DNA from: an uncultured Candidatus Saccharibacteria bacterium
GTDB lineage: Bacteria; Patescibacteriota; Dojkabacteria; SC72
Assembly (NCBI GenBank): GCA_964403155.1
Contig: CAYOEG010000002.1
Location: 74,296 to 138,295 of the forward strand
Length of the DNA stretch: 64,000 bases
Direction: 5' to 3'
Below the pieces are notes generated by a model. That model was not told the origin of the DNA and made no database searches. It saw only the letters and a program-made list of their open reading frames with translations. Positions 2,293-56,323 of this stretch are shown here, piece by piece (position 1 is the first letter of the stretch; each line of letters opens with the position of its first letter). The translations under genes and the position numbers were made by a program.

Positions 2293-2332
2293 TTTCTAGA
2301 CAAATCAAGTAGCTATGAATATAATCTAGATA

Positions 2333-2974: not shown

Positions 2975-2975
2975 C

Positions 2976-15992: not shown

Positions 15993-17246
15993 ATGCTAAA
16001 CTTGCCTTTTCTGAGACACCTCTCGGATAACAATTCGTTAATAGATACAAATAAGAATGTAATAGCATTAGATATCGGTACAGAGAAGTTAAAAAGCATA
16101 CTTTTCTCTATGGATTCTACGGGTATCAACATTAAAAAGATCTCTCGAATAGACCAGCAACAAAATGCTATGAAGAGTGGAATCATTACCAACCTTGATA
16201 CAGTATTGGAGAACTGTCGACTTTCAATCGCAGAGCTTACCAATCGTCTCCCAGATGAAGAATTGCCACAATATGTAGTCATGGGTATTGCGGGAGAGTA
16301 CATACAGGGTGTCTCCATTGTCATCAACTACCAGAGGGAAGAGAATTTCGATACAGAGGTAACACAAAAAGAGCAGAATAATATCATTAAACAAATTAAA
16401 GAGAAAATCGAGGTAAATGGGAAACAAGATTTAAGTCAAAGAACTGGGCTACACAGTGAGGATATCGAAATCTTGCATATTACCAAGACAGGCTTGGAAA
16501 TAGGGGGAATGCCTGTGGATTCACTAGTTGGATACAAAGGAAGAGATGTAAAATTGAATTTCTACGCTTCCTTCGCACCCAAAACATATGTTGAGGCACT
16601 CAGAAAAGTTGCCCAAGAGCTTCATCTTGGAATCCTAGGGATTGTATCCCAACCATTTGCAGTAGCAAGATCTTTTAACGGATCTTCGAGCAAAGATTTC
16701 TCTGCAATATTCATAGATATCGGAGGTGGAACTTCTGACATCGCTGTGGTAGACAGGGGAAATATTGTTGAGACAAAGATGTTTGCATTTGGAGGAAGAA
16801 CATTCACAAAGGAATTAACAAATGTTCTTTCCCTAGATTACAGACACGCAGAGCAGAGGAAGATAAAATATTCCGAAAAAGATTTGAATAAGGACTTGGC
16901 ACGGGAGGTACAAAAAATTATGTATCCTGTCGCCAAACTTTGGATGAAAACACTGAAAACAGCATTTTACAGCTGTGATGATGTTGATACATTCCCTGGT
17001 CAGATATATCTTTGTGGAGGTGGAGCATTACTTCCTGAAATCAAAGAGGTCATGCTTGAGTTCCCTTGGAAGAAATTCCTTCCTTTCCCTGTAGTACCAA
17101 GAATCGAATACTTTACACCTCAGAAGTTAGACAATATCATAGATCATAGTGGAGACCTAAAATACATTTTTGATGTAACACCTGCTGCACTTGCTAAATT
17201 TGCGTATGATAACGAGATAAATAAATCGAAAAATATAGCAATATAA
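15993..17246 (+). CDS. actin-like ATPase of the FtsA/PilM family
   Basis: Phosphate-1 motif ALDIGTEKLKS and phosphate-2 motif FIDIGGGTSDIAVV. At 417 aa its length is FtsA-like. Confidence 0.5.
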   Translation: MLNLPFLRHLSDNNSLIDTNKNVIALDIGTEKLKSILFSMDSTGINIKKISRIDQQQNAMKSGIITNLDTVLENCRLSIAELTNRLPDEELPQYVVMGIAGEYIQGVSIVINYQREENFDTEVTQKEQNNIIKQIKEKIEVNGKQDLSQRTGLHSEDIEILHITKTGLEIGGMPVDSLVGYKGRDVKLNFYASFAPKTYVEALRKVAQELHLGILGIVSQPFAVARSFNGSSSKDFSAIFIDIGGGTSDIAVVDRGNIVETKMFAFGGRTFTKELTNVLSLDYRHAEQRKIKYSEKDLNKDLAREVQKIMYPVAKLWMKTLKTAFYSCDDVDTFPGQIYLCGGGALLPEIKEVMLEFPWKKFLPFPVVPRIEYFTPQKLDNIIDHSGDLKYIFDVTPAALAKFAYDNEINKSKNIAI

Positions 17247-31693: not shown

Positions 31694-32105
31694 GGGGACG
31701 TAAGGCTTTCGACAGGAGTCTGCGTTTAGTTGTCACAAACCGAGGGTTGTCTCGTTAATCAACGCACAATGATAAGTGTAAAAAACAAAATCGTCGCCTT
31801 TGCAGAGAATATTAAAGCAAGTTTGGCTATGCCAGCTTTCAACTTTAACTTTGCTTAAGGTTTAGTCAATTAAGTTTGACTAATGTCTTCTTTTTCTATT
31901 CCTAGTTAGGAATTTAAGACAGTCGTTACTAGGATATATACTTACTATTTTGTCGGTAGAGTAGTGAGCACGAAAGTAATTACTGAGTGGATATATCTTT
32001 TTGCTAATCCTTTTAGATATGTCTAACTATTTAGGATTAGATATGTTTGTACATGATGCTAGACAATGCTTATGGACGTGGGTTCAATTCCCACCGTCTC
32101 CACCA
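31694..32105 (+). ncRNA. ssrA: tmRNA (ssrA)
   Basis: The 5' end is GGGGACGUAAGGCUUUCGAC, the 3' end is a tRNA-like GGACGUGGGUUCAAUUCCCACCGUCUCCACCA, and the acceptor pairing is GGGGACG/CGUCUCC. The tag reading frame ends ...AMPAFNFNFA-stop (approximately 31796-31858). Confidence 0.85.
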
Positions 32106-33273: not shown

Positions 33274-33954
33274 ATGGCAAACTCTGATTTTCTAAGGGCA
33301 AATCTAAACCAACATGCAGTAAAGAACTCTAAATCTAAAAAAATGGATGAAGAGATTGATGTTGCAGTTCAAAAATTGATCCCTTTCCTCTCTGAAAAAT
33401 ACCCCGAACTTGATTTTGAACATCAAAAAAAGATGCTTTTAAAGGACATTATTTCAATGTTATCCTTACAATTTCCGGGATATTCAAATTTTTTTAGATG
33501 TGAAAAAGAGACGAGCTTCATAAAACCAGATGGAGGTTTCCTTTTTGCGAAGAATAAGAGAGGAGAAAGACGTTTAGTTCTAGTTGCAGAAGTAAAAAGG
33601 CAGGGAACCAATGATAAGAGATTTGAAGAAGGGTTAAGTAGCCAAGCCATGGGGAATGCAATAGAAAGGTTAGGGAAAAATCTCATAGGTATAAGGACGA
33701 TTTTTAAAAATGAAGGAGTTTTGCCTTTTATCTGCTTTGGTTCGGGTCATGATTTTAGAGAAGGATCTTCCATCTTGGACAGAGTTATAACTATGAACGA
33801 ATTCTTCCCATTAAACCAACTCTTCGTAGAGAAGGACTTTATGCCATTTGAACCTGTTTCCATGATGTTTAGATATGAACCTTGGACTGTTGACGAAATG
33901 TTTGAAAGCATGAAAAAGGTTGCAATAAAGGCAATAGAGTATAAGTTTGTTTAA
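33274..33954 (+). CDS. putative type II restriction endonuclease (PD-(D/E)xK)
   Basis: IKPDGGFLF, about 20 residues, then LVLVAEVKRQG forms a PD...ExK signature. It is convergent with, and overlaps by 4 bp, a Dam-like methyltransferase gene. Confidence 0.4.
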   Translation: MANSDFLRANLNQHAVKNSKSKKMDEEIDVAVQKLIPFLSEKYPELDFEHQKKMLLKDIISMLSLQFPGYSNFFRCEKETSFIKPDGGFLFAKNKRGERRLVLVAEVKRQGTNDKRFEEGLSSQAMGNAIERLGKNLIGIRTIFKNEGVLPFICFGSGHDFREGSSILDRVITMNEFFPLNQLFVEKDFMPFEPVSMMFRYEPWTVDEMFESMKKVAIKAIEYKFV

Positions 33955-35099
33955 TTCTTTTTCAATAACCACAAGAGTTCTTTAACCTTGATTGTTCTTT
34001 CTCTTAGGTTTCGAGAACCTCTATACGTGTTGTAATCTTGTTCGTAAAGAATGTAATCCCCATGTTTTTCTAGCATCTTCTTGAAAGTATCTATCGGTAT
34101 AATACCCTCATTGTTGTAAGAGATAAGGATGTATTTTGCTTTTGTGTTTTCTAAAAGGTTGTTCATAAAAACTTCTGCCTCTTGTCTTTTGTTGTATTTT
34201 GACTTGTTCCACTCTTTTGAGATTCCACTTACTCCATCCTGAATATCTGTAGGTTTACCACTATTTATTATATTCAACATGAAATAATTTGAACCATAAG
34301 GATGTTGGTTGTATGGAGGATCGTAATATGCTAAATCAACTTCTGGAAGTTCCAAAATCAGGTTATTAATATCTTCTTGATAGACAGTATAATCACATTC
34401 AACTTCTGAGAAAATCGGCACTTCTAATTCTATCTCACCTTTTATTCGTGTTAATGCATTCTCCCCTTTGCCTCCAAAGTGTCCAATCCCGTCCTTTTTG
34501 TGAAATCCTTTGAAAACACCGGAAGTGTTTGTATGTATAGAAGATTCGACTAGAAGATTTGCCAGACAATATTTTTGTAAATCCTTGTCTAATGTATCTA
34601 TTAAAAATCTAACATTATCAATAATTAAAGCATTTTTATGTGTATAAAAAACGCGCTCTCCTTCCTGAATATTATTGTCATCCTTTGGTGCATAATTTCT
34701 AGTGATAAAATATTCAGATTTAGTTTTTTCAAGTTTCTTTGCATTTAAATATTCTATTGAGTCAGAGAGCTTCTTTATATTAACAGAACTTTTGTTATCC
34801 AAATAAGCAGAGTTAATAGTAAAGGCATAACTTTCTAAGTCATTTACAAGGAGATCCTTTGAGTGATATTTTAGTAACCTTGATACAGAGCCACTTCCAG
34901 CAAAACCATCCAAGGATGTTATTTTATCTTTTCCTAATTCCTTTTTTATTTCTACAATCGCTTGATTAAGAAAAGGAAGTAGCTTTCTCTTATTACCAAT
35001 ATATGTAATTAAGTGTGAAGAAAAGTAGTCCTGGTTAAGAAAGTCACGATCTGTATCATCTTCGAAAAGAAATAGTTTCTGTATATGTTTTCTCTTCAC
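33951..35099 (-). CDS. N6-adenine-specific DNA methyltransferase, D12 (Dam-like) class
   Basis: N-terminal YIGNKRKLLPFL (the Dam 'WAGGK'-type motif), SAM motif LDGFAGSGSV, and catalytic DPPY (AYYDPPYNQHPYGSNYF). Confidence 0.75.
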   Translation of the reverse strand: MKRKHIQKLFLFEDDTDRDFLNQDYFSSHLITYIGNKRKLLPFLNQAIVEIKKELGKDKITSLDGFAGSGSVSRLLKYHSKDLLVNDLESYAFTINSAYLDNKSSVNIKKLSDSIEYLNAKKLEKTKSEYFITRNYAPKDDNNIQEGERVFYTHKNALIIDNVRFLIDTLDKDLQKYCLANLLVESSIHTNTSGVFKGFHKKDGIGHFGGKGENALTRIKGEIELEVPIFSEVECDYTVYQEDINNLILELPEVDLAYYDPPYNQHPYGSNYFMLNIINSGKPTDIQDGVSGISKEWNKSKYNKRQEAEVFMNNLLENTKAKYILISYNNEGIIPIDTFKKMLEKHGDYILYEQDYNTYRGSRNLRERTIKVKELLWLLKKN

Positions 35100-43844: not shown

Positions 43845-44201
43845 ATGCCTATGAATATTATAGAAATGCTAAATAATTTGTTCCCAGTACAGAAGGCATA
43901 CGCATCGTTGGGATCTTCGTTGAGTGGGGAACTGGAGAAGTTATCTGACTCTAGTGCAGCAGATGAATATGGATTGGTAGAGATTGTAAAAAATATTGCC
44001 ATCCCATTAAGTGTTATCTGTGTTGTACTTTTATTGATTTATGGAGGGTATATGCTTATGTCTAGCAAGGGTGATCCAGATAAGCTTCAGGAAGCAAAGC
44101 AGGTTATAACTAATGCAATTATTGGTTTTGTTGTTATATTATTATGTGTGGCAATATTAATATTAATTTCTAATACATTAGGTTTGGGAATCTATGAATA
44201 A
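43845..44201 (+). CDS. VirB2/TrbC-type (T4SS) pilin-like protein, paralog 1
   Basis: C-terminal two-helix hairpin (IYGGYMLMSSKGDPDKLQEAKQVITNAIIGFVVILL) shared with four downstream paralogs. The start was moved to the ATG at 43845, after the helicase stop. Confidence 0.45.
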   Translation: MPMNIIEMLNNLFPVQKAYASLGSSLSGELEKLSDSSAADEYGLVEIVKNIAIPLSVICVVLLLIYGGYMLMSSKGDPDKLQEAKQVITNAIIGFVVILLCVAILILISNTLGLGIYE

Positions 44202-44493
44202 CTTAGCAATCAACATATCACAATTTTCCTCCATCTTTACAACAAAGTACTATGATGTTGAGACATTTGCAAACAGTAAGCTGGCGGAAATTATAAACTG
44301 GGCTACTGGGTTTGCAGCTTTGGTGGCAGTAATATTTCTCATCATTGCAGGATATACATATATAACAGCAGCTGGTGATGCAGATAAGATTGAAAAAGCA
44401 GGGAAAACTATAACCGCAGCAATAATTGGATTAGTAATTGTTTTTGTAGCGAGGGTATTGGTAGAGTTCGTTTTAAGAAAGCTTATAGGGTAA
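44194..44493 (+). CDS. VirB2/TrbC-type pilin-like protein, paralog 2
   Basis: INWATGFAALVAVIFLIIAGYTYITAAGDADKIEKAGKTITAAIIGLVIVFVA. Confidence 0.5.
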   Translation: MNNLAINISQFSSIFTTKYYDVETFANSKLAEIINWATGFAALVAVIFLIIAGYTYITAAGDADKIEKAGKTITAAIIGLVIVFVARVLVEFVLRKLIG

Positions 44494-44556
44494 TCTTGAA
44501 ACATTTCTATCATTTGTATATAATAAACACATAAATTAATATATTTTTAGATTTTT

Positions 44557-44913
44557 ATGAAAACACCAAAAATCTTAGCAGGCGCAACATCTATTTTCTC
44601 AGGATTATATTTAGCTTCTGCAGCTTTCGCAGGCGCAACATCCGATGCAGAGGGTCTTATACAAAATATCGGCGGTACTGGAAAAGCAGACCTTATGACT
44701 TTGATCTATAGCTTAATAAACTGGGCTATCGGCATTGCGGCTTTGGTTTGTGTAGTAGTCTTAATCTTCAGTGGTTATAAGTATATTACTGCTGCAGGAG
44801 ATGAGGCTAAGGTAGAGAGTGCTACAAAAACATTAACCTTTGCAATTATTGGTTTAGTTGTTTGTTTCATTGCAGTCATCTTAGTAAAATTTGTTCTCCA
44901 GAAGCTCGTTTAA
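44557..44913 (+). CDS. VirB2/TrbC-type pilin-like protein, paralog 3 (with signal peptide)
   Basis: Signal peptide MKTPKILAGATSIFSGLYLASAAFAGA, then INWAIGIAALVCVVVLIFSGYKYITAAGDEAKVESATKTLTFAIIGLVV. Confidence 0.5.
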   Translation: MKTPKILAGATSIFSGLYLASAAFAGATSDAEGLIQNIGGTGKADLMTLIYSLINWAIGIAALVCVVVLIFSGYKYITAAGDEAKVESATKTLTFAIIGLVVCFIAVILVKFVLQKLV

Positions 44914-44940
44914 TAGCTCAAAGAGAGAAACGCTTAAGTT

Positions 44941-45210
44941 ATGGGAATAGATTTGAGCCCTTTGGTGGGTACTAGCTATGAAAATTTGCAGGAGTTTTTG
45001 TATTTTTTAATTAACTATGCAATAACGATTTCTGCAGTGGTTGCAGTCGTTTCATTAATAATATCAGGGTTTAAATACATTCTATCTTTTGGTGATGATA
45101 AGAAGGTAAAGGCCGCAACTAGCTCAATCATATACTCTCTAGTAGGTTTGGTACTTGTGTTTGCAGCCCCTATAGTTATAAAATTTGTTATTAATACTTT
45201 ACTAAAATAA
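44941..45210 (+). CDS. VirB2/TrbC-type pilin-like protein, paralog 4
   Basis: INYAITISAVVAVVSLIISGFKYILSFGDDKKVKAATSSIIYSLVGLVLVFAAPIV. Confidence 0.5.
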   Translation: MGIDLSPLVGTSYENLQEFLYFLINYAITISAVVAVVSLIISGFKYILSFGDDKKVKAATSSIIYSLVGLVLVFAAPIVIKFVINTLLK

Positions 45211-45212
45211 TA

Positions 45213-45572
45213 ATGAACAAATTACTTGGTTTGATAACGTATTTTTCATCTCTTTTCTTTGCAACACCAGTCTTGGCAACGAATACAGACCCAGGTGGTA
45301 TGGGTAATACAGTTGTTGGTGCAGGGGATGAACCACTAAAGATAGAAGTAATAGCTGGTGTCGTTGATAAAGTTATGAATATCGTATTCCCAGTAGCCGG
45401 AGTCCTGTGTGTAATATTTATCATTATTGGAGGATATATGTGGATTGCTTCTGCAGGTGATCCTGCTAAGGTAAAACAGGCACAAGGGACATTGACTTGG
45501 GCAATCATAGGTTTAGTCTTTGTATTAGTAGTGAGGCTAATAGTTAGTGCAGTGATAGGTGCTTTAGAGTAA
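45213..45572 (+). CDS. VirB2/TrbC-type pilin-like protein, paralog 5 (with signal peptide)
   Basis: Signal peptide MNKLLGLITYFSSLFFATPVLA, then FPVAGVLCVIFIIIGGYMWIASAGDPAKVKQAQGTLTWAIIGLVFVLVV. Confidence 0.5.
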   Translation: MNKLLGLITYFSSLFFATPVLATNTDPGGMGNTVVGAGDEPLKIEVIAGVVDKVMNIVFPVAGVLCVIFIIIGGYMWIASAGDPAKVKQAQGTLTWAIIGLVFVLVVRLIVSAVIGALE

Positions 45573-45607
45573 TCCAAAAATATCATTCATATAGTGTATA
45601 ATTAGCT

Positions 45608-47449
45608 ATGGTTAAAAAGCCCCTAAATTTCTTACAACTTTGTTTAACTGTCATCCTTTGTGGATATGGGTTTATGCTTTTTACAAATCCTGTATATTCT
45701 GATGAGGCAACAGATCTTGAGAATCAGATAAATCAAAAGAATCAAGAATTAAATGAGAAACAAACAACCCTTTCCCAAGTAGAAGCTAGAATTAAGGAGA
45801 TTAGTGGAAGTAACTATTCAGTAAGTCAAAAGATTGCATTGATAAATGAAGAGATAGCAAAACTAGATGCTAGTATTGCTGCAAATTCGGAGGCTTTGAA
45901 TTCGAAGATCAAGGAGATTGAGGGCAGACAAGCCCTTATTGCTCAGAAGAAAGTAGAGATGGATCAGCTTTCTACAGATCTATATATGCAATCTAGATAT
46001 AGGATGGCAACATTCTTCCTCTCAGGTAAGGATTGGGATATTTTAGTTAAGGAATTTTTCTTAAAACAGAGTAGTATTTCTGTTTTAAAAACAGAGGTTG
46101 AACAGATTAATGGAGAATTTAGTAGTTTAGAAGAGAGTAGGGCGTTGTTAGAGGCAGAAAAAACAAATCTTGAGGCTCAGAAGAAGGATATGGATGATTC
46201 TTATGCTTTGTTAGCTGCTGAGAAGGCAAAGTTGCAGAGTGAATTAAATAGTCAGTATGCAAGTAAGAGTTCGTTGACTAAGACCATAGGGAGTCTTTCT
46301 AAAGAAATTTCTCAATTACAACAATATCTTTTGACAGTGAAATCTGGCGGTACTGTTGTGAATGCGAATTCTGTTCCCCAAAGTTCTTCTGATCCTCAAT
46401 CGTCTCAACTATATTTTCGAAACAATGCTCCATCTGGTGCCTTCGCAGTTTTCTCGTATGGTGCATATACATGGAGACATGGTATGAGTCAGTGGGGGGC
46501 AAGGGCAAGGGCTGATGCGGGACAGTCATATCAGACCATCCTCTCTGCTTATTATCCTGGTACAACGATGGTGAGTGATACAATGAGCACGATAACTGTG
46601 AGATCTTGCAATAGAAACGGCGCACGTTGTAGTGTTTGCAATAGTCCTACATATGCAACATACAGTTTTGAAGACTATTACATGAAGAAAATTGCTGAAA
46701 TGCCAGATGATTTTGGACCAGAGGCTTTGAAAGCACAAGCAATCGCTACAAGAACCTATGCACTTAAAGCAACAAACTATGGGGCAGAAGCAATAGATGA
46801 TGACGAATGTGATCAGGTATTTAATGCAGGTGTGAATAAACCCAATTGGGAGGCCGCAGTTGCAGCCACCAGTGGTATTGTCCTTGCAACTGGGGGAACA
46901 TTAGCAGATACCCCATATGCAGCTGTTCATGGTGGGTATTCATATGATATGGGTTGGGATACCAAATCGGGCAATGGAGGATATTTAGATTGGGAAAAAG
47001 ACGCTTGGGAGAGTGCATCCCAAGTCAGTTGGTTCTACAAAAACTGGTTTAGAAAGGGGTATTCTTTAAGCGGAAATAACTGCGGACGTAATCCATGGCT
47101 AACAAATATTGAAATGGCGGATATATTAAATGCATATTTAAGATGGACGCAAGTTAGTAGCGACTCTAGAATTGTTGCGGTAGACACAACTAGTTGTTGG
47201 GGACAAGCTGCTAACCCATACAGTATTGCTCAACTTCAAGCTGTTGTCTCGAATCCGGTAACATATGTGTATAGCTCAGTCGTAACGAACTCGAATGGTA
47301 CCACGACGAATGTGTCATTTAACACAAACAGGGGAGTTATAAATATACCAGGTCAAGATTTCAAGACAGTTTTCAATATGAGGGCTCCAGGTGCAGTAAG
47401 AATTCCTCAAAATGGAACAATCATGAACATCAACATAGAGTACAAATAA
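45608..47449 (+). CDS. membrane-anchored coiled-coil protein with a SpoIID/LytB-like peptidoglycan hydrolase domain
   Basis: N-terminal TM helix, about 230 aa of coiled coil, then SpoIID-type motifs (MSQWGARARADAGQSYQTILSAYYPGTT and PEALKAQAIATRTYALKA). Confidence 0.6.
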   Translation: MVKKPLNFLQLCLTVILCGYGFMLFTNPVYSDEATDLENQINQKNQELNEKQTTLSQVEARIKEISGSNYSVSQKIALINEEIAKLDASIAANSEALNSKIKEIEGRQALIAQKKVEMDQLSTDLYMQSRYRMATFFLSGKDWDILVKEFFLKQSSISVLKTEVEQINGEFSSLEESRALLEAEKTNLEAQKKDMDDSYALLAAEKAKLQSELNSQYASKSSLTKTIGSLSKEISQLQQYLLTVKSGGTVVNANSVPQSSSDPQSSQLYFRNNAPSGAFAVFSYGAYTWRHGMSQWGARARADAGQSYQTILSAYYPGTTMVSDTMSTITVRSCNRNGARCSVCNSPTYATYSFEDYYMKKIAEMPDDFGPEALKAQAIATRTYALKATNYGAEAIDDDECDQVFNAGVNKPNWEAAVAATSGIVLATGGTLADTPYAAVHGGYSYDMGWDTKSGNGGYLDWEKDAWESASQVSWFYKNWFRKGYSLSGNNCGRNPWLTNIEMADILNAYLRWTQVSSDSRIVAVDTTSCWGQAANPYSIAQLQAVVSNPVTYVYSSVVTNSNGTTTNVSFNTNRGVINIPGQDFKTVFNMRAPGAVRIPQNGTIMNINIEYK

Positions 47450-47492
47450 CCTTGTTCTAACCTTTATTCTATGATATCGTTATACAACCAAT

Positions 47493-48116
47493 ATGAAAGA
47501 CATAATAAGTCAGAACAATAACATCCCTAAGAAATTCAGAAACCTGAAGAGATCTTTCGTAGAAACAATCGCTTTGCACAATGACCACTCCTTTAAATCA
47601 TTTCCCAAAGGATTAAAATTCCATGGAAAAGAACAGGGAGAAGAAATTGTATTGGTCATAAGATCACATTGGATAATATATCTACCACAGATATTGGCAA
47701 CACTATTAGTATTGGCCTTACCATGGATCCTTGTTGGGATATTTAGCTCTATCCTACACAATTTCACAATATTCCTGGCCTTACTAATAACCTCGTTCTT
47801 AATTGCTGCTAGTATTGTAGTCTCATCAATCCTAAAATGGTATTACAATGTCAGTATAATAACTGATCAGAGAGTCATAGATTTGGATTTCCCTAATATA
47901 ATGGCACATTCTATGTCTGAAGCTCAGCTTGAAAAAATTGAAGATGTAACACACAAACAGCTTGGGATATTAGGAAGTTTCTTTGATGTAGGATCGGTAT
48001 ATATCCAAACCGCAGGAACAGCTCAAAATATCGAATTTACAAATGTCCCAAGACCAAGAGATATTCAAGATATTTTAATAGATATGTTGGAATCTAAGCA
48101 GAAAGGAGAAATATGA
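47493..48116 (+). CDS. membrane protein with a C-terminal bacterial PH-like (YdbS/YdbT-type) domain (tentative)
   Basis: Two TM helices, then a beta-rich segment with a YdbT-like pattern (VIDLDFPNI...SVYIQTAGTAQNIEF). Confidence 0.3.
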   Translation: MKDIISQNNNIPKKFRNLKRSFVETIALHNDHSFKSFPKGLKFHGKEQGEEIVLVIRSHWIIYLPQILATLLVLALPWILVGIFSSILHNFTIFLALLITSFLIAASIVVSSILKWYYNVSIITDQRVIDLDFPNIMAHSMSEAQLEKIEDVTHKQLGILGSFFDVGSVYIQTAGTAQNIEFTNVPRPRDIQDILIDMLESKQKGEI

Positions 48117-48385
48117 TGGATAATCCAAATGATATATTGGACAATTTAGGTAAAAATCCATTATCAGGGTTAGGAATAAATGCAATCGGTCTTCTCAAAG
48201 CACCAATAATCATAATCCTCATAGGTAATCTTCTCTTCTCAGCACTACTCTTCTTAAGATCTAGAATCCTAGCAGACACATTTGAATCTTCCAGTAACAA
48301 AGTTATAAAAATAATAGTATCTAGTTATCTTGTTCTAACAGTTATAGGAAGCATAGTCACGGTACTATTTCTTTTAATTGGATAA
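48113..48385 (+). CDS. small two-TM membrane protein
   Basis: 90-aa ORF whose start overlaps the upstream stop. Confidence 0.3.
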   Translation: MMDNPNDILDNLGKNPLSGLGINAIGLLKAPIIIILIGNLLFSALLFLRSRILADTFESSSNKVIKIIVSSYLVLTVIGSIVTVLFLLIG

Positions 48386-48387
48386 TT

Positions 48388-50583
48388 ATGAAAATTACTG
48401 CTCAACAGTTTGTTTCAAATAGCAAAGAAGGGAACTCCTTTGTATCAATCTTCAAACATTTTGCGAACTCTGGTGAAAAGAAGACAGAGAGAGAAGGGGA
48501 CCTGTACTGCCTTCTTAATATCTCTGGGAAAGAAAATATCCCTGCAGAAAGAATAAGTAAGTTCGTTTGGGATGGGATTTTAGATGGGTATATATATTCC
48601 AACGAAAAAAGCACAAACAACGCACTCAAAGATGGGATTAATAACGGAGTTCAGAAACTTAGAGATCTCATAAAGAATGATCAAACATTGGAAGAACTGG
48701 GGGTTAATGTTGATTTTGTACTTGTAGCTCAGAGGAAAGAGGGATTGTATATTGGGAATCTCGGAGAAAATGAAATATATGCCTACAAGGCTGGAAAGTT
48801 TGTAGATATATCAGAAATATTGAAGAAAAGTAGGGCAAATACCGCAGGTATCGCACTTGAAGAACAGGATATGCTAGTAATCTCTACAAAAGGTGTCTTA
48901 GAAGGATATATCAACTCACTATCCAACTCGAAAGATTCCAAAAATGTTGTATTAGGGCTTAAGACTTTAGGTGGAGGATTGAATGGGTCTGGTGGTTTTG
49001 TGCTTTTCTTAGATGAAGAATTGAATGAGACTACAGAGTTAGAAGAAATACCAATAGATGGAGAAGAACCTCTTCTGCATCAACATCCAAAAGAATCGGA
49101 GAAATATGCAGTAATGGCAGAGCATACAATCAAATACACGAAGGGCAGATTTTTCCAAGGATACGGTCTGATCAAGGATGGTGCAGTTGAATATTTCCAA
49201 AGGATAAAGGAATGGGTAAAGAATATTCTTGGGAATCGTAAATGGTTTAAAAAGTTTGCATCCAAGGTTTCTGAAATCAAGATAAATACAAAACCGATAA
49301 CTTCGATGAAAGGTATGCGCATAGATGGTTACAAGACAAAAGATCTTCGTACGAGGAGGGTTCGAATGGTGGTAATAGGTGTTGCAATAATAGTACTCTT
49401 AGCTTTGGGAATAAATTTCACAATCAAAGCAAGGAATGCAAGCATCGTACATAAGCAGGCAACTGCGGTATTTACAGAAGTTGAAAACCTTGTTAAGAAG
49501 GCAGAGAATTATGCAACCTCGGACAAAAGTACTGCAGAAATGTCCATATATCAGGCAAAAAACCAACTCAATGGCCTTCCTGCAACCCTCTCTGAGAAGG
49601 ATATGGGTATCAAGGTGGGATACGATTCTAGAATATTGTCTTTAGAGGATTCGATGTACTATCGTGTTGGGCTAACAGACAACGATGGAAAACTGTCGAC
49701 ATTCTTGGATTCCAGACTTGCCTTTGGAGAAGGGTCTAATCCTACAGACATAGAGATATACTCTGATTCCTCTGGGAATAGATATCTGATTGTAACAGAC
49801 AAGGGACTCAAGTCTGTATATAGAGTCGCTTTGTATGACAAGGTGACAGAGAAGCTAATAGATACCAGTAACCTTTTGAAGGAACCAATGTATGTTTCAA
49901 TGGGCAATTCCGGGGTGTTTGTTTACGACGAAAGAGTAGGAGTACTTAAAGCACCCTTTGATGATAGTAAATGGTTCTCGACATTTGTGGCAATTTCTGG
50001 ATTAAGTAGAGAAAGCATCAAGCCAGACCAAATCAGTGAGTTCATTGTATTAACGGAATCGGACAATATATATATATTGGCACAGGATGAGAATTCCCTG
50101 CTTAAATCTGTTTTCTCATATGAAAATAGATATGGCCTTTATTACAGATACATTACAGATGACAGATTCACAAATTCTACAGATGTATTAGCAGACCTTA
50201 GTGTATATTTCTTAACATCAGACGCTCCATACCTATTAAGATACAGTTACAACTATGCAGAACAGATTCAGAAAGAAAATCCTTTGACAATATCTGGCGT
50301 AAACGGAGATCTTGGAATATTAACAAAGGGTTTTACAACTGAGAGTCTTGATGAAGGGTTGTATGTATTTGATTCTGCAAACAAAAGATTTGTGAAGTTT
50401 GAAAAACCTCAGGAAGCAGGTAGCAATATAATTCACCCGAATGAAGTAGTATTAAAAGCACAGTGGGTATACAGGGGATCTAAGAGTGGAGTGTGGGATA
50501 ATATCAAAGACTTCGTAGTAGATTCTTCTACTGGAGATCTATATATTCTCGATGGCTCTACAGTTTGGAAGGTCGTGATATAA
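48388..50583 (+). CDS. bitopic membrane protein with an N-terminal degenerate PP2C-like (pseudophosphatase) domain and a large extracytoplasmic C-terminal domain
   Basis: The PP2C motif order is retained but metal-binding Asp residues are replaced: DGxGG becomes LNISGK, GDSR becomes NLGENEIYAYKAGKF, SDG becomes STKG. One TM helix (VRMVVIGVAIIVLLALGINF). Confidence 0.4.
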   Translation: MKITAQQFVSNSKEGNSFVSIFKHFANSGEKKTEREGDLYCLLNISGKENIPAERISKFVWDGILDGYIYSNEKSTNNALKDGINNGVQKLRDLIKNDQTLEELGVNVDFVLVAQRKEGLYIGNLGENEIYAYKAGKFVDISEILKKSRANTAGIALEEQDMLVISTKGVLEGYINSLSNSKDSKNVVLGLKTLGGGLNGSGGFVLFLDEELNETTELEEIPIDGEEPLLHQHPKESEKYAVMAEHTIKYTKGRFFQGYGLIKDGAVEYFQRIKEWVKNILGNRKWFKKFASKVSEIKINTKPITSMKGMRIDGYKTKDLRTRRVRMVVIGVAIIVLLALGINFTIKARNASIVHKQATAVFTEVENLVKKAENYATSDKSTAEMSIYQAKNQLNGLPATLSEKDMGIKVGYDSRILSLEDSMYYRVGLTDNDGKLSTFLDSRLAFGEGSNPTDIEIYSDSSGNRYLIVTDKGLKSVYRVALYDKVTEKLIDTSNLLKEPMYVSMGNSGVFVYDERVGVLKAPFDDSKWFSTFVAISGLSRESIKPDQISEFIVLTESDNIYILAQDENSLLKSVFSYENRYGLYYRYITDDRFTNSTDVLADLSVYFLTSDAPYLLRYSYNYAEQIQKENPLTISGVNGDLGILTKGFTTESLDEGLYVFDSANKRFVKFEKPQEAGSNIIHPNEVVLKAQWVYRGSKSGVWDNIKDFVVDSSTGDLYILDGSTVWKVVI

Positions 50584-50593
50584 TAGCGATATT

Positions 50594-51037
50594 ATGAAGA
50601 TTTTCAATAAAAAGGCATCTTTCAATTATGAGATACTTGAGACATTTGAAGCAGGTATTGTCTTAACAGGGGCTGAGGTTAAATCCGTAAAGACGGGAAG
50701 ACTAAATCTTGGAGATGCATATGTAAAAATAATAAATAATGAGTTATGGCTCGTTAATGCAGATATTCCTAGATATAAATATTCTTCGGATGAGCACTAT
50801 GATTCAACTAGATCAAGGAAGCTTTTAATAAATAGGGATCAGTTTGTTAAATTGCAAAGTAAGATAAAACAAGGTAATCTGACATTAATGCCTGTGAGTA
50901 TGTATGATACGAGAGGTTTTTTGAAGGTAGAAGTAGGTATTGGTAGAGGAAAGAAACACTATGAGAAGAAGCTAAGAGAGAAGGAGAGGGATTTGGATAG
51001 GGAACTCCACTTGGAGAACAGAAAATATGTGATATAA
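50594..51037 (+). CDS. smpB: SsrA-binding protein SmpB
   Basis: NKKASFNYEILETFEAGIVLTGAEVKS...GDAYVKI...ELWLVNADIPRY...RSRKLLINRDQ.... Confidence 0.9.
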   Translation: MKIFNKKASFNYEILETFEAGIVLTGAEVKSVKTGRLNLGDAYVKIINNELWLVNADIPRYKYSSDEHYDSTRSRKLLINRDQFVKLQSKIKQGNLTLMPVSMYDTRGFLKVEVGIGRGKKHYEKKLREKERDLDRELHLENRKYVI

Positions 51038-51049
51038 TGTTATAGGATT

Positions 51050-51385
51050 ATGACAGACTTAAATATTGGTTTAGAAAAAGGAAAGAATTCTGAGACAAAA
51101 CCACTTTCTCCAGAGGGCTTAGATTCTGCTAAAGGTGCTGATTTAGAGAACAACACTCTCGCTCAAGAACCTGCTGCAAAGCCAGAAGATGAACAGGACC
51201 TTCCAAAAGTGCAGTCTCCAGTACAGGCACAGAAAGATAATAAAGTTGCAGAGGAAACTCTGCCAGGAGTTGGATATCAATTGCCTGCAGAAAATGTGCT
51301 TATAGAATCTGATGAAACAATAGCAAGACTTTTGATATTGCGTGACAAAATGAGAAATGGTGGAATCCCTTCCAACCAACAGTAA
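51050..51385 (+). CDS. hypothetical acidic low-complexity protein
   Basis: 111-aa ORF. No motif recognised. Confidence 0.3.
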   Translation: MTDLNIGLEKGKNSETKPLSPEGLDSAKGADLENNTLAQEPAAKPEDEQDLPKVQSPVQAQKDNKVAEETLPGVGYQLPAENVLIESDETIARLLILRDKMRNGGIPSNQQ

Positions 51386-51410
51386 CTCTCTTTGATATAT
51401 ATATCCCTGT

Positions 51411-53975
51411 GTGATATTCTTTAAGCATAAGATTACCTTACTGCCATTAATGAATTCAGATGAATTCACATATTCACAAGTAATAGGTCCAATTAAAGAT
51501 CCTACCAAAGAAATTGAAACTGGTTCTAATGTTGTGTATCCAAATAATTCATACGAGGAATATTATGGAAACAACAATATAGAGATCCCGTGGGGTTGGA
51601 TTATTTTCGCACTTGTATTAATAGGTGGCCTTGTAGTAGCTTTTTTCCTTGTTAAGAAAAAATTAATTAGGAAAGACAGAAATGAAAAAGCCAATGATGG
51701 AGTATTAATGGAGGTACGGGTTCCAAGAGATAACGAAGTGGAAATAGGAGTCGCAGAACAGATGTTCGCAAATCTCTACGGTATTGGTGGAAAAGGAGAT
51801 GGCTTAGCAGAACACTTTACAGTAGGTAACGCAGTAAGTTTTGAAGTTGTTGGATTACCTGGTGAAATTAGGTTCTTTGTGCATTGCCCAAGGAAATTCG
51901 CTGACTTAGTTGAGAAACAAATCTTAGGATCATACCAAGATGCTGATGTCTCGATAGTGAATGAGTACAATATATTTGCTCCCAATACTAAATCAGCATA
52001 CACAAGGTTAGTCTTAGACGAGGAACCATATTGTCCATTAAGAGTAGCAGAGAATTTTACAGGAGATCCATTTGCAAATGTACTTAGCACACTTAGCAAG
52101 ATGTCTGAAAATGAAGGTGCTGTTGTACAGATAATTGTTACTCCTACAGATAGTACTTGGCAGAAAAATGGGGCGAAGTTTGTACAGAAGGTAGAAAACA
52201 ACAACTCAGATCCCGAAAAGAAAAAGATAGGGATCTCACAGGAGAAGTTGCAAGGAATAGGGAAGAAGGTTGCAAAGCCAGGGTTGGCCACCGAGATTCG
52301 TATTATGACAAGTGCTCCTGACGAGGCGATTGCAAAGATGCATTTAGATAATATTGTTGGTGCATTCGACCAATACAATAACCCAGGGGTGAACAAATTA
52401 AAGAAGGCAAAGGTAGAGAAGAAAGACGAGAAGAGATTCCTTTATGATGTCATATATAGGAGGACGCCAGAAGCAAAGGAATCTATTCTTAATGTCGAAG
52501 AGCTTGCGGCCTTATATCATTTCCCTAATAAAAATATTACAACACCCAATATTCATTGGTTGCTATCAAGAGAGTTAGTGGCAGATAATTCAATTAGTTC
52601 TGACATAAAGTCTAAGGATACGATATGGATCGGGAACAATTATTTTAGAGGAAAGAAGAAGATTATATGTTTTGAACGGGATGATAGAAGAAGGCATTCG
52701 TATATTCTTGGTCAGACGGGTACGGGTAAGTCTTGGCTTATGAAGAGGATGATATTGCAAGATATATACAATGGCGATGGGGTTTGTTTCATAGATCCAC
52801 ATGGAGAAACAGCAGAAGATATTTTAGAGTTGATCCCACCAGAGAGGGCAGAGGATGTTATCTACTTTAATGCAGGAGATTTTGAACGTCCTTTTGGTTT
52901 GAATATTATGGAATTTTACAATGAGCAGCATCAGCACCAAATTGTTAATAGCTTCATTGCTTTGTTGATTAGGTTGTTTGACCCTCACAATCAAGGATAT
53001 GTAGGTCCGGCAATGCAACAAGCGGTAAGAAACTCTATGCTTACAGCTATGGCAAAAGAAGGGTCGACTCTAATTGAGGTTGTTAGAATATTGCAGGATG
53101 AGGAATGGGTTATGAATTATTGGTTACCAATGGTAAAGGATGAACTGGTAAGAAGGTACTGGACTGATCAGGTGGCGAAGACAGACAAAAAGACTAAGTC
53201 TGAATCTTTGACATATTTCATTAGTAAGTTTGATAAATTCACAACAAATCTGGCAATTAGAAATATTATTGGTCAGTCTAAATCATCTTTTGATTTCAGA
53301 GATGTGATGGACAACCAGAAAATCCTGATAATCAACCTTTCGAAGGGTGCGATAGGGGATGAGAATATGTCCTTCATCGGTCTTCTTGTTGTACAGAAAA
53401 TGTTGGCTGCGGCACTAAGTAGAGAGAATATTCCTCAAGAACAAAGAAAAGACTTTTTCTTCTATGCTGATGAGTTCCAGAATTTTGCAACAGAGGAATT
53501 CTCTTCTATTTTGTCCGAGGCAAGAAAGTACAAATTAAATCTCACAATTGCACATCAATATATTGGTCAACTACCGGAAGAAATTAAGAATGCAGTGTTT
53601 GGTAACGTTGGTTCTTTATTCATAACAAGGTGTAGTGCAGAGGATGCAAAGTTTTTGGAGACTCAGTTTGAGCCATATGTTAAGGCGGGAGATATGGTTA
53701 ACCAAGGTTCTGGACATTGGTATGTTAAATTACTGAACAATGGTGTATATCCTGCGCCTTTCTCGCTTAATTCTTTCTATGGACCGAAATTCCCTGATTC
53801 TGGTTTTGATCTTCCTGTTAGAAAGGATGTGGCAGATATTATTAAGAAATACTCAAGAGCTAAGTATGGTAGGGATGTGGCAGTAATTAATGAGGATATT
53901 AAGATAAGGTCACAGTTGGACAGAAAACCTGAACCTAATCCTATGAATTCTCCATTCCCGCAAATGGGATTCTAA
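51411..53975 (+). CDS. membrane-anchored FtsK/HerA-superfamily P-loop ATPase of type IV secretion type (VirD4/TraD-like coupling protein, or VirB4-like)
   Basis: N-terminal TM helix. Walker A is YILGQTGTGKSWLM, Walker B is DFFFYADEFQNFA, and there is a downstream TIAHQYIGQL motif. Confidence 0.55.
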   Translation: MIFFKHKITLLPLMNSDEFTYSQVIGPIKDPTKEIETGSNVVYPNNSYEEYYGNNNIEIPWGWIIFALVLIGGLVVAFFLVKKKLIRKDRNEKANDGVLMEVRVPRDNEVEIGVAEQMFANLYGIGGKGDGLAEHFTVGNAVSFEVVGLPGEIRFFVHCPRKFADLVEKQILGSYQDADVSIVNEYNIFAPNTKSAYTRLVLDEEPYCPLRVAENFTGDPFANVLSTLSKMSENEGAVVQIIVTPTDSTWQKNGAKFVQKVENNNSDPEKKKIGISQEKLQGIGKKVAKPGLATEIRIMTSAPDEAIAKMHLDNIVGAFDQYNNPGVNKLKKAKVEKKDEKRFLYDVIYRRTPEAKESILNVEELAALYHFPNKNITTPNIHWLLSRELVADNSISSDIKSKDTIWIGNNYFRGKKKIICFERDDRRRHSYILGQTGTGKSWLMKRMILQDIYNGDGVCFIDPHGETAEDILELIPPERAEDVIYFNAGDFERPFGLNIMEFYNEQHQHQIVNSFIALLIRLFDPHNQGYVGPAMQQAVRNSMLTAMAKEGSTLIEVVRILQDEEWVMNYWLPMVKDELVRRYWTDQVAKTDKKTKSESLTYFISKFDKFTTNLAIRNIIGQSKSSFDFRDVMDNQKILIINLSKGAIGDENMSFIGLLVVQKMLAAALSRENIPQEQRKDFFFYADEFQNFATEEFSSILSEARKYKLNLTIAHQYIGQLPEEIKNAVFGNVGSLFITRCSAEDAKFLETQFEPYVKAGDMVNQGSGHWYVKLLNNGVYPAPFSLNSFYGPKFPDSGFDLPVRKDVADIIKKYSRAKYGRDVAVINEDIKIRSQLDRKPEPNPMNSPFPQMGF

Positions 53976-54027
53976 TAGATGTATCTTCTAAAAACCTTCA
54001 TCTTTTGGTAGAATAGGCTACTTTAAT

Positions 54028-54100
54028 GGGAGTATAGCTCAGTCGGCAGAGCGCGGTTCTTATAAAGCCGTGGTCGATGGTTCGATTCCATCTACTCCCA
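54028..54100 (+). tRNA. tRNA-Ile (anticodon UAU), no encoded CCA
   Basis: Hand-folded. The acceptor stem is GGGAGTA/TACTCCC, the D-arm is GCTC...GAGC, the anticodon stem is CGGTT/AGCCG, the loop is CTTATAA, and the T-loop is TTCGATT. Confidence 0.7.
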
Positions 54101-54142
54101 TATTTCATCAATATTTAATAACTGCAGAGTACAATCTTCGTT

Positions 54143-54625
54143 ATGAAGATTTATGTATTTATAGACGAACAGAACCTGTATTTAAGCATAAAGTCTCAGG
54201 GGTGGAAGCTAAATTATGAAAGATGGTATAGATATCTACGAGATAAATATCGTGCAGGCAAAATGCTTGTATTCCTTGGCTTCCTCGACAAAAGAAGATT
54301 TTTCTATAAACAGTTACAAGATATTGGATTTGAACTAGTCTTCAAGGAAGTAACAAAACACATAGAAAATGGAAAGGTATCTTACAAGGGGAACATAGAT
54401 GCTGAACTAGTATTGTATTGTGCACGAATAGAACATGACAACTATGACAAGGCAATTATTGTTAGTGGGGATGGAGATTTTAAATGTTTAATTGCATATC
54501 TTGAGCAAAATCGTAAATTAGGAAGAATATTAATTCCTAATAAAAAATCTTTCTCGTCATTACTTCTAAGTTACGATAAGTATCTAGATTTCGTAAGTGA
54601 TCAGAGGGATAGGCTGAAAGAATGA
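54143..54625 (+). CDS. NYN/LabA-like (PIN-fold) domain protein
   Basis: MKIYVFIDEQNLY...AIIVSGDGDFKCLIAYL. Confidence 0.55.
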   Translation: MKIYVFIDEQNLYLSIKSQGWKLNYERWYRYLRDKYRAGKMLVFLGFLDKRRFFYKQLQDIGFELVFKEVTKHIENGKVSYKGNIDAELVLYCARIEHDNYDKAIIVSGDGDFKCLIAYLEQNRKLGRILIPNKKSFSSLLLSYDKYLDFVSDQRDRLKE

Positions 54626-54729: not shown

Positions 54730-55617
54730 TTACAGTTCTTTAAGATTCTTTTGATCCTCTTTTTGCATCTTAACAAGGTTAAGATACTTTTCTGTAGTAG
54801 AAAGTCTCTTGTGACCAACTAACTTGGAAACAACAACAAGACTTACACCATTAGCTAAGTGATGTGCAATAAAGGTATTTCTAAGATCATTAACCTTTGC
54901 ATTCTTAATACCACCTCTCTCAAACGCCTTATCTATCGCAGTTCTAATATTTCTTACCAAGAGAGGTCTACCATTCTTTGTTACAAACAATGTATCATCT
55001 TCTGTCTCCGGTCTTACTTCTAAATATTCATCAATAGCCTTCTTTGCCGATTTGTTTAGAGGAACCTTCCTGAATGGGTGGCTACCAGCAGCTTTGATAT
55101 ACAAATAATCGATCTTTCCATCTTTAGATTTTCTAATATCTTCCAAAGAAAGAGCTGCCAATTCTCCAATTCTAATACCAGTTTGTAATAGCACTTCTAC
55201 GATAGAGTAGAGACGGATATCAATTCTACTGACATCTCTCAATGCCCTGTATTCCATTTCTGTTAATACTCTAGGAGGTTTAGTCTCAAACTTAGGATGT
55301 GCTAATTTCTCTGATGGATTATCAGAAATCATAGAGTTATCCATTAGATATCTGTAGAAGGTTCTGGTACTGTTTATCTTTCTGGAAATACTCTTTGGGG
55401 TGTAGTTATTATCCTGTAAATACTGTTTGTACTTCTCCAAATCTTCAATAGTGGTGTCTTGGATAGTAGCTCTAGCTTCTTTCGAAAAGAAATTTAGCAA
55501 TTGCTCGATATCTTTAGCATAAGCTATAACAGTGGCTTCAGACCTACCCTTAGATCTTAAATCACCTATAAACTTATTTCTTTTCTCTTCAAAATTTGGA
55601 TTATTTATTGCTCCCAC
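54730..55617 (-). CDS. tyrosine recombinase (XerC/XerD or phage-integrase family)
   Basis: The N-terminal SAM-like core-binding domain and the catalytic R...H..R...Y residues (TGIRIGEL, HHLANG, LVGHKRLSTTEKY). Confidence 0.8.
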   Translation of the reverse strand: MGAINNPNFEEKRNKFIGDLRSKGRSEATVIAYAKDIEQLLNFFSKEARATIQDTTIEDLEKYKQYLQDNNYTPKSISRKINSTRTFYRYLMDNSMISDNPSEKLAHPKFETKPPRVLTEMEYRALRDVSRIDIRLYSIVEVLLQTGIRIGELAALSLEDIRKSKDGKIDYLYIKAAGSHPFRKVPLNKSAKKAIDEYLEVRPETEDDTLFVTKNGRPLLVRNIRTAIDKAFERGGIKNAKVNDLRNTFIAHHLANGVSLVVVSKLVGHKRLSTTEKYLNLVKMQKEDQKNLKEL

Positions 55618-55754: not shown

Positions 55755-56201
55755 ATGCCCACAATTTCATATAGACCTAATAGGCCGAGAGCGAATAATA
55801 CTATTAAAAATAACATAGCACCTGCTATTTTTGAGAATACAGTAGTAAAACTGATATTCGTAGGGATATCTATATTCCTTCTCTACAATGTTTTGCATTC
55901 AGTAGATATTACGATTCAGAAGGTAAATATATTAAAAAACGCTAGAGAAGAGGTAGAAAGCTTAAGAGTAACCAATTTGGAGTTAGCTACTCAGTTACAA
56001 AGTATGCAAAATCCTGAATATATTGAAGTAGAGGCTAGGGATAGATTGAATTTCTCTGGAACTAATGATGTGGTTTTTGTAATTCCGGATTCTCTTCTGG
56101 AGACAGCTAGTGAGCGTCTTTCTATGATATGGGATGAGAATGTTGTACAGGAGAAATCAAATTTTGAAGCTTGGGTAGATTTATTGGTAAATGGGTCTTA
56201 A
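55755..56201 (+). CDS. FtsB/DivIC-like septum formation initiator (tentative)
   Basis: TM helix, a coiled coil, then PEYIEVEARDRLNFSGTNDVVFVIP matching the FtsB C-terminal motif. Confidence 0.45.
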   Translation: MPTISYRPNRPRANNTIKNNIAPAIFENTVVKLIFVGISIFLLYNVLHSVDITIQKVNILKNAREEVESLRVTNLELATQLQSMQNPEYIEVEARDRLNFSGTNDVVFVIPDSLLETASERLSMIWDENVVQEKSNFEAWVDLLVNGS

Positions 56202-56248: not shown

Positions 56249-56323
56249 CGCGGAGTAGAGCAGTGGCAGCTCGTCAGGCTCATAACCTGAAGGTCGTTGG
56301 TTCGAGTCCAACCTCCGCAACCA
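56249..56323 (+). tRNA. initiator tRNA-fMet (anticodon CAU)
   Basis: C1·A72 mismatch (CGCGGAG/CTCCGCA-A-CCA), anticodon loop CTCATAA, and T-loop TTCGAGT. Confidence 0.75.

Follow-up and report, generated by a model that had tools for sequence, protein, structure and literature searches.

Patescibacteria hold a large share of uncultivated bacterial diversity, and their type IV secretion system (T4SS) is one of the rare machines whose need for life on a host cell has been demonstrated. These chromosomal systems derive from the conjugation systems of single-membrane bacteria, carry arrays of 2–11 VirB2-like pilin genes and have no relaxase (PMC10633639; PMC12102498), and the T4SS of S. epibionticum (SEML1_0006–0019) is essential (Wang et al., 2023, PMC10633639). 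About 42% of the Patescibacteria pilin genes were reported not to lie near virB4, coupling-protein homologs are mostly far from virB4 as well (148 of 5,713 nearby), and tubular structures at a Patescibacteria–host interface were described in a 2026 preprint. In this study, a 64,000-nt stretch of contig CAYOEG010000002.1 (positions 74,296–138,295 of the forward strand, assembly GCA_964403155.1), hereafter the window, was analyzed for a locus at window positions 43845–53975, which an earlier sequence-only reading had taken for a minimal, non-canonical pilus or DNA-translocation apparatus. The results make it probable that this interval is a composite neighbourhood of a Candidatus Dojkabacteria chromosome rather than one machine, and that it consists of three parts, namely an array of five T4SS pilin genes, four envelope genes, and smpB followed by a small acidic open reading frame (ORF) and a DUF8128 ATPase gene.

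The pilin array occupies positions 43845–45572 on the + strand. Its five ORFs, pil1 (43845–44201, 118 aa), pil2 (44194–44493, 99 aa), pil3 (44557–44913, 118 aa), pil4 (44941–45210, 89 aa) and pil5 (45213–45572, 119 aa), all matched PF18895 (T4SS_pilin), with 35.5, 47.6, 53.6, 47.5, and 47.5 bits, respectively, against a gathering score of 26.6. All five also matched PF04956 (TrbC), below its threshold, and NCBIfam NF045849, with E values of 3e-8 to 3e-11, pil3 being above the cut-off of the latter (42.9 vs. 40 bits). Every pilin carries two strongly hydrophobic helices (residues 47–65 and 91–109 in pil1, 33–51 and 76–94 in pil2) around a Lys-rich loop with a conserved GD..K motif, and a clear N-terminal signal peptide was found only in pil3 (ending AFA, followed by G) and pil5 (ending VLA, followed by T), pil4 being without one. 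The first two genes overlap by 8 bases, and an alternative GTG start of pil1 at 43806 overlaps the end of the upstream uvrD gene. The five ORFs are predicted to be VirB2-type T4SS pilins with a two-helix hairpin pattern, in agreement with the VirB2/TrbC-type assignment proposed before. The NF045849 match also runs counter to a general statement of the literature, since it implies that VirB2-like proteins are not wholly missing from the conjugation systems of single-membrane bacteria.

The arrays of other Dojkabacteria were then compared. Five genes were present in 36 of 43 complete arrays from Dojkabacteria species genomes and contigs, and in the larger arrays (6–8 genes) the extra copies were pil3-like in five of six cases and pil5-like in the remaining one. 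Among 34 five-gene arrays from GTDB species loci, the best match was the window paralog of the same index at 169 of 170 positions (pil1, pil4, and pil5 34/34 each, pil2 33/34); the window paralogs share only 24–52% identity with each other, and the median identity of the pilins among Dojkabacteria is 47–56%. Judged by these best matches, the five paralogs are positionally orthologous across the class, which is a new detail. Being ancient and kept in position, they likely fill five non-redundant structural roles, as major and minor, tip or base subunits. The fixed set speaks for a pilus that is heteromeric or built of major plus minor subunits, rather than for simple antigenic variation, and an antigenic-variation cassette is the less likely reading. 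Contig breaks were also considered as a sign of pilin microdiversity and were discarded, as they were spread over the SpoIID, pilin, and p731 genes without convincing enrichment.

The genomic neighbours of the ATPase (51450–53975, +, 841 aa; 854 aa if a GTG start at 51411 is used) differ from those of the pilins once other lineages are included. Its family comprised 4,745 clusters of 50% identity at E ≤ 1e-30, with named members in Microgenomatia, Paceibacteria, Gracilibacteria, and Saccharimonadia. A scan of the genome collection with the ATPase alignment yielded almost only Dojkabacteria (66–93% identity) plus one outgroup, and a metagenome set provided 80 loci at 47–58% identity to an outgroup ATPase. 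Genes for pilins, SpoIID, bPH, DUF5657, p731, and smpB were not found within 8–10 kb of the ATPase gene in loci L085–L090 and L092, and of the 27 metagenome loci that extend 6 kb or more upstream, only 1 had any of them near it. Of the 33 non-Dojkabacteria metagenome loci that extend 4 kb or more downstream, however, 19 had an opposite-strand xerC followed by divIC within 8 kb downstream of the ATPase gene (40 of 80 overall), and the same ATPase–xerC–divIC order was present in the window and in loci L084, L086, and L091, Levybacteria included. The xerC–divIC neighbourhood of the ATPase is thus much better kept than any pilin link. In the window, it is formed by a xerC-type tyrosine recombinase gene (54730–55617, −; PF00589, 8.8e-27) with a median identity of 79% in the class, and, after it, a divIC/ftsB-type septum protein gene (55755–56201, +; PF04977, 1.2e-9). 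Locus L085, from Saccharimonadia, carries a small ORF and then the genes for the ATPase, GyrB, and GyrA, and in L087 the ATPase gene is adjoined by ftsW, murG, and mraY. The earlier inclusion of the ATPase in a pilin locus did not hold outside Dojkabacteria-like lineages, where no other locus genes are nearby.

Two genes of the interval that the sequence-only reading had left out lie directly before the ATPase gene. The first is smpB (50594–51037, +; PF01668, 6e-46), a housekeeping gene of trans-translation that sits inside the string and is no part of any secretion system; operon-like spacing as a sign of shared function loses its force with smpB in mid-string. The second encodes an acidic low-complexity protein (51050–51385, +, 111 aa, 20 Asp/Glu vs. 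12 Lys/Arg), for which no protein-family match was found. An unannotated ORF directly upstream of the ATPase gene was also present in L084 (9562–9819), L085 (9572–9982), L086 (9558–9995), L088 (1122–1814), L089 (6996–7814), L090 (7459–8001), and L091 (5702–6202), its position being kept and its sequence not. These ORFs are acidic and of low complexity in most lineages, those of L089 and L090 not clearly so; homology among them was considered and dropped, as the matches were compositional only.

In S. epibionticum ML1, the corresponding order is SEML1_0141, SEML1_0142, two intervening genes, and gyrB. SEML1_0141 (139 aa), the counterpart of the small ORF, was scored essential, and so was SEML1_0142 (1019 aa, annotated as TraM recognition domain-containing protein), whose paralog SEML1_0293 was non-essential. 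Because L085 is syntenic with S. epibionticum and the ATPases of L085 and the window can be aligned collinearly over 836 residues (34% identity), the window ATPase is probably orthologous to SEML1_0142. A genuine VirB4 (SEML1_0008) and a genuine, essential FtsK (SEML1_0096) are likewise encoded by S. epibionticum. Within Dojkabacteria, the median identity of the ATPase is 75%, compared with 71% for FtsH, 64% for EF-P, 64% for SmpB, and 58% for PolA, values that place it among the most constrained proteins of the region, at a housekeeping level by this measure. In 2.9 million viral contigs, no full-length DUF8128-bearing homolog was found, the matches being relatives only of the isolated nucleotide-binding domain. 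A separate group of many proteins of about 1,400–1,500 aa (for example P0283, P0295, and P0304; 1370–1510 aa) has a C-terminal nucleotide-binding domain about 50% identical to that of the window ATPase, whereas the roughly 1,000 residues N-terminal to it are different.

Gene order inside the class was invariant. All 79 GTDB species loci of Dojkabacteria showed uvrD, pil1–5, SpoIID, bPH, DUF5657, p731, smpB, the small ORF, the ATPase, xerC on the opposite strand, divIC, efp, ftsH, and polA. This synteny is no evidence of functional linkage, because the housekeeping flanks are equally syntenic. Beyond the class, the block from SpoIID to the ATPase was kept in L091 and L103, and in L084 minus bPH and DUF5657, with an ATPase identity to the window of 44–49% where measured (L084 and L091); L084 in addition keeps three pilins upstream of the block, and L169 and L171 are short contigs in which only its downstream end is visible. 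The expected synteny of the gene set was observed in all Dojkabacteria loci examined, L084, L091, and L103, but did not extend to the ATPase elsewhere. Two further features of the outgroup locus L084 are a sbcD/sbcC-like pair between the pilin array and the SpoIID gene (1846–5027) and two separate ORFs, one PP2C-like and one for the propeller, in place of an undivided p731.

The genes named by the sequence-only reading are all present at their positions on the + strand, and the shared orientation is real yet uninformative for function, since the whole arm from 39.7 to 64 kb is + strand for all real genes, with xerC as the sole exception, and its positive GC skew is that expected for the leading strand downstream of dnaA. 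The intergenic spacing from uvrD through the ATPase gene is −8 to +64 bases. Promoter and terminator scans of the locus gave fewer sites than shuffled sequence, and no operon boundaries were obtained. The window is chromosomal, because it carries dnaA (24303), dnaN (26220), a tmRNA gene (31694–32105) among eight tRNA/tmRNA genes, and aminoacyl-tRNA synthetase genes; ftsH and polA are also present, and the GC content is uniform (0.34–0.39). The ATPase protein is 100% identical to an NCBI protein, and the names given to its nearest homologs are Candidatus Dojkabacteria or candidate division WS6. The UvrD–nuclease fusion next to the array, once suggested to serve DNA uptake, showed no link to uptake and is an ordinary helicase-nuclease, syntenic like the rest of the region.

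Sequence models and a structure model were used to place the ATPase. The protein has one membrane helix (~48–70), the DUF8128 region (~85–400; PF26449 is carried in this N-terminal part by its homologs), and a nucleotide-binding domain with a helical insertion (~400–790), with Walker A (GQTGTGKS), Walker B (FFFYADEFQNF), and TIAHQ motifs; G421, G424, G426, K427, D674, and E675 were invariant in 82 ATPase sequences. Residues 400–723 exceeded the thresholds of the coupling-protein profiles PF02534 (30.5 vs. 20.1 bits) and PF10412 (23.8 vs. 20.5 bits), whereas none of the curated coupling-protein equivalogs (TraD, VirD4-like CD1115, and others) was reached, the best scores being 43.5 vs. 366 and 39.9 vs. 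250 bits. NCBIfam VirB4 models matched only at the P-loop, PF03135 was not matched, and the only PDB sequence matches of the family profile were DotL and TrwB. The AlphaFold2 model built from the 82-sequence alignment (pLDDT 85.9, pTM 0.75) predicted a single membrane helix, some 320 residues folded as an alpha/beta domain, and a RecA-type nucleotide-binding domain with a helical insertion. Structure comparison gave scores of 30.2 for VirB4 (4ag5), 28.8 for the DptH C-domain, 27.4 for TrwB, 24.5 for HerA, 23.9 for DotL, and 17.1 for FtsK, and the best full-length Foldseek matches were TrwK/VirB4 (E 4e-16); the N-terminal domains of the ATPase and VirB4 do not superpose. Six isolated DUF8128 domains searched against Pfam at E ≤ 10 gave neither a recurrent match nor any connection to PF03135, the N-terminal domain of VirB4. 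The ATPase is thus assigned by profile and model to the VirB4/VirD4/HerA group and not to FtsK, and its predicted structure does not decide between VirB4 and VirD4. Of the FtsK/HerA-type assignment made earlier, the membrane anchor, the Walker A/B and TIAHQ motifs, and the wider group stood, and the FtsK part did not, neither the PF01580 motor domain nor the gamma domain of FtsK/SpoIIIE having been found. A role as FtsK replacement was considered and is weakened by the canonical, essential FtsK of S. epibionticum. In the literature searched, DUF8128 and DUF5657 were named in no paper. A C-terminal two-helix tail, SR.KYGRD...E.EI (window 53850–53945, residues ~800–830), was nearly invariant across Patescibacteria classes, S802, R803, G807, and R820 being nearly so in the 82 sequences.

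The four envelope genes follow the pilin array only in Dojkabacteria-like lineages. The first of them (45608–47449, +, 613 aa), directly 3′ of the array in 43 of 43 complete Dojkabacteria arrays, encodes a protein with one membrane helix (8–26), about 220 residues matching coiled-coil families, and a SpoIID/LytB domain above threshold in both TIGR02669 (99.6 vs. 83.3 bits) and PF08486 (52.2 vs. 23 bits), as the description of a membrane-anchored coiled-coil hydrolase of about 600 aa had foreseen. Its motif E-M-P ... AQA.A.RTYA was kept in 50–51 of 51 orthologs, and E364, by its motif the putative SpoIID catalytic Glu, in 50 of 51; the protein is a candidate cell-wall-cutting (glycan-strand) enzyme. 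The next gene (47493–48116, +, 207 aa) encodes a membrane protein with helices at 67–85 and 92–110 and a C-terminal bacterial PH domain, whose bPH_2 match (PF03703, 20.8 vs. 22 bits) is just under threshold and whose orthologs have weak precomputed bPH_2 matches. It overlaps by 4 bases, which suggests translational coupling, with the gene of a DUF5657 membrane protein (48113–48385, +, 90 aa, helices 30–48 and 72–90; PF18901, 29.8 vs. 25 bits), and the pair corresponds to the PH-like and tiny membrane proteins noticed before.

The fourth, p731 (48388–50583, +), encodes a 731-aa bitopic protein without a Pfam or NCBIfam match (NCBIfam Stp1, 13.7 vs. 230 bits) and with nothing below E 0.2 in a sequence search of the PDB. 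Its AlphaFold2 model from 60 orthologs (pLDDT 82.4) shows an N-terminal alpha/beta domain (1–215), a membrane helix (~320–345), an extracellular helical stalk, and a beta-propeller (426–731). In Foldseek, the N-domain matched the PP2C phosphatases tPphA, SpoIIE, PstP, and PppA (E 9e-8 to 1e-6, TMt 0.5–0.57), and the propeller, which the sequence-only reading had missed, matched six-bladed Pizza6/NHL propellers (E 9e-10, TMt 0.74). PP2C catalysis uses metal-binding Asp residues. In the 60 orthologs, R55, Y68, Y121, and G126 of the N-domain were invariant and no Asp was, D66 alone being nearly so; because the metal-binding Asp residues are not conserved, the domain is degenerate and very likely catalytically dead, the degeneracy agreeing with what had been read from the letters. 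The median identity of p731 among Dojkabacteria is 38%. SpoIID, bPH_2, DUF5657, and p731 are plausible as lineage-specific accessories, and could equally be general envelope or division genes.

For the remaining T4SS components, no match to VirB4, VirB6, or PrgI was found anywhere in the window, and VirB3/PrgI, VirB6, and TrsD gave no Pfam or NCBIfam match there, with several small ORFs without any match remaining; a relaxase is absent from the locus. Their absence from the window does not show absence from the genome, so the self-contained apparatus is left without support on this point. VirB4 is listed as present in Dojkabacteria assemblies (Table S1, PMC12102498), and the T4SS core probably lies outside the window, whose array is one of the ~42% of cases not adjoining virB4.

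The analysis shows family assignments, predicted folds, conservation, and patterns of synteny; from these we infer a scheme of pilus assembly, wall opening, and motor action in which the five pilins would be the pilus-subunit set of a Patescibacteria-type chromosomal T4SS derived from MPF-FATA-class conjugation machinery, with the VirB4, VirB3, VirB6, and TrsD core encoded elsewhere in the genome. Each pilin would enter the membrane as a hairpin of two helices whose Lys-rich loop faces the cell interior, pil3 and pil5 would lose their signal peptides by cleavage, and VirB4 would extract the subunits and polymerise them into a tube or fibre across the wall towards the host cell. The SpoIID enzyme may make an opening in the wall and so be a functional counterpart of VirB1, and the p731 propeller may act as a surface receptor or scaffold. 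The DUF8128 ATPase is most likely a ring-shaped membrane motor of coupling-protein type, which would either work with the T4SS, though encoded at a locus apart, or drive a different translocation process. A bolder version, which we regard as rather unlikely, takes the ATPase and its acidic partner for the essential motor, missing so far, that couples or energises the Patescibacteria T4SS, still joined in Dojkabacteria-like lineages, within a single transcription string, to the five differentiated pilins, the wall-cutting SpoIID, and the propeller-bearing pseudo-phosphatase receptor as a host-contact feeding-tube module that moves host DNA, RNA, or protein.

Other readings of the interval were weighed against the composite one. 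That the ~10-kb string is after all self-contained, with the DUF8128 ATPase replacing VirB4, SpoIID as VirB1 analogue, p731 as stalk or receptor, and no need of VirB6/8/9/10, would suit the co-directional, closely spaced genes, the retention of the string throughout the Dojkabacteria loci as well as in L084, L091, and L103, and the TrwK/VirB4 structural matches. Yet this reading is improbable: the ATPase orthologs of other classes stand without pilin or SpoIID neighbours, sequence models put the ATPase with coupling proteins and leave VirB4 models only a P-loop stretch, smpB is embedded and co-orientation is general on this replication arm, and a separate VirB4 is reported for Dojkabacteria and coexists with a DUF8128-type ATPase in S. 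epibionticum. The published VirB4 entries and the ~42% of pilin genes apart from virB4 likewise tell against the minimal, non-canonical apparatus originally proposed. Alternatively, the pilins alone might belong to a T4SS, with the ATPase a chromosome-handling or division motor acting with XerC and DivIC and with SpoIID, bPH, DUF5657, and p731 as division or envelope-remodelling genes. SpoIID-type enzymes and coiled-coil hydrolase partners work at septa in other bacteria, and the recurrent xerC–divIC pair, the gyrB/gyrA and ftsW, murG, and mraY neighbours, the essentiality in S. epibionticum, and the housekeeping-level constraint of the ATPase all fit. We nevertheless consider it unlikely, as S. 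epibionticum already has its canonical FtsK, the ATPase and xerC genes converge and hence are not co-transcribed, with inserts of 9–5,314 bases between them, and the 80 loci are probably phylogenetically clustered, so that the association may reflect a gene order passed on by descent. The least credible of the readings, and a very improbable one, sees in the locus what is left of an integrated conjugative element. A tRNA-Ile gene and the tyrosine recombinase just downstream of a coupling-protein-like ATPase would suggest it, but the recombinase is the most conserved gene of the region and, like the whole string, keeps its place in all Dojkabacteria loci examined, a relaxase is lacking, the GC content is uniform, and the viral contigs contain no full-length DUF8128 homolog.

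Several points weigh against the composite reading itself. The VirB4 of this genome was not seen in the window, and its presence is taken from a published table for other Dojkabacteria assemblies; orthology of the ATPase to SEML1_0142 rather than to SEML1_0293 comes from synteny through a third genome. Synteny in one class cannot separate functional linkage from descent, which makes the genes from SpoIID to p731 candidate accessories. The tight spacing from uvrD to the ATPase gene is compatible with co-transcription of the whole string, ATPase included, and together with the retention of the block in L084, L091, and L103 it leaves room for real coupling in this lineage.

Some further features of the window were recorded. 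The tRNA-Ile gene (54027–54101) has a UAU anticodon, which is uncommon in bacteria; a CAU anticodon is found in each of the tRNA genes at 56249 and 57007. Between the tRNA-Ile gene and xerC, a NYN-domain gene (54143–54625) has a counterpart in none of the 79 other Dojkabacteria loci and is probably a small strain-specific insertion. Upstream, an EcoRI-like restriction endonuclease gene (+) and a D12-class N6-adenine methyltransferase gene (−) are convergent at 33274–35099, probably as a type II restriction-modification pair, and at 15993–19102 a 618-aa ORF without Pfam or NCBIfam match comes after the gene of an FtsA/PilM-like actin-fold protein, the two overlapping at stop and start.

Taken as a composite, the locus offers two candidate lineage-specific partners, namely the wall enzyme of SpoIID type and the surface protein with its pseudo-PP2C and propeller domains, and points to an unstudied ATPase family that is phylum-wide, highly constrained, and probably essential, with xerC and divIC and not T4SS genes as recurrent neighbours. 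If the ATPase served the T4SS, it would be the missing motor; otherwise it would be an uncharacterised essential membrane ATPase of Patescibacteria.

Among known ATPases, type IV coupling proteins (TrwB of R388, VirD4, DotL/IcmO, and Cag-beta) share with the window ATPase a Walker A/B domain with a helical insertion and the two profiles PF02534 and PF10412. A textbook coupling protein has an N-terminal two-helix membrane domain and then the nucleotide-binding domain, whereas the window ATPase has one membrane helix and the extra cytoplasmic DUF8128 region of about 320 residues, reaches no curated equivalog, is without neighbouring relaxase or T4SS genes in seven loci from other lineages and in 26 of 27 metagenome loci, and is chromosomal, phylum-wide, and essential by probable orthology. 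VirB4 of single-membrane bacteria (Thermoanaerobacter pseudethanolicus, 4ag5) and TrwK of R388 resemble it in length (~800 aa) and in a large domain before the nucleotide-binding domain, but the lack of PF03135, the P-loop-only model match, and the N-terminal domains that do not superpose separate them, and Patescibacteria have a separate bona fide VirB4. The p731 protein is likened in its two folds to membrane-anchored PP2C phosphatases (PstP and SpoIIE) and NHL propellers, and in its bitopic layout to PstP, from which it differs by the missing sequence-model match and the unconserved metal-binding Asp residues.

For the pilins, NF045849 is the family of the Mbov_0395 pilin-like conjugal transfer protein of Mycoplasma integrative and conjugative elements, from MPF-FATA-type elements of single-membrane bacteria; there the genes are single and on mobile elements, and here they form a five-paralog chromosomal array. 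The closest system is the T4SS of the S. epibionticum type, which likewise has tandem divergent PF18895 pilins (24–52% identity in the window vs. a published mean of 25% and maximum of 54%), is chromosomal and on the dnaA side of the genome, and has no relaxase and a coupling-protein-like ATPase not adjoining virB4. The window array differs in having no VirB4 or VirB6 within 43 kb upstream or 10 kb downstream, and in the SpoIID/LytB, bPH_2, DUF5657, and pseudo-PP2C/propeller genes downstream, which are undescribed for the published clusters; S. epibionticum relies on a lysozyme-like protein and an M23 peptidase, and its gene table lists neither SpoIID nor DUF5657. T4SS pilin arrays in Patescibacteria are already known and the window array falls within this known kind, while the fixed five-paralog set of Dojkabacteria fits poorly with the variation for host range suggested for the published systems.

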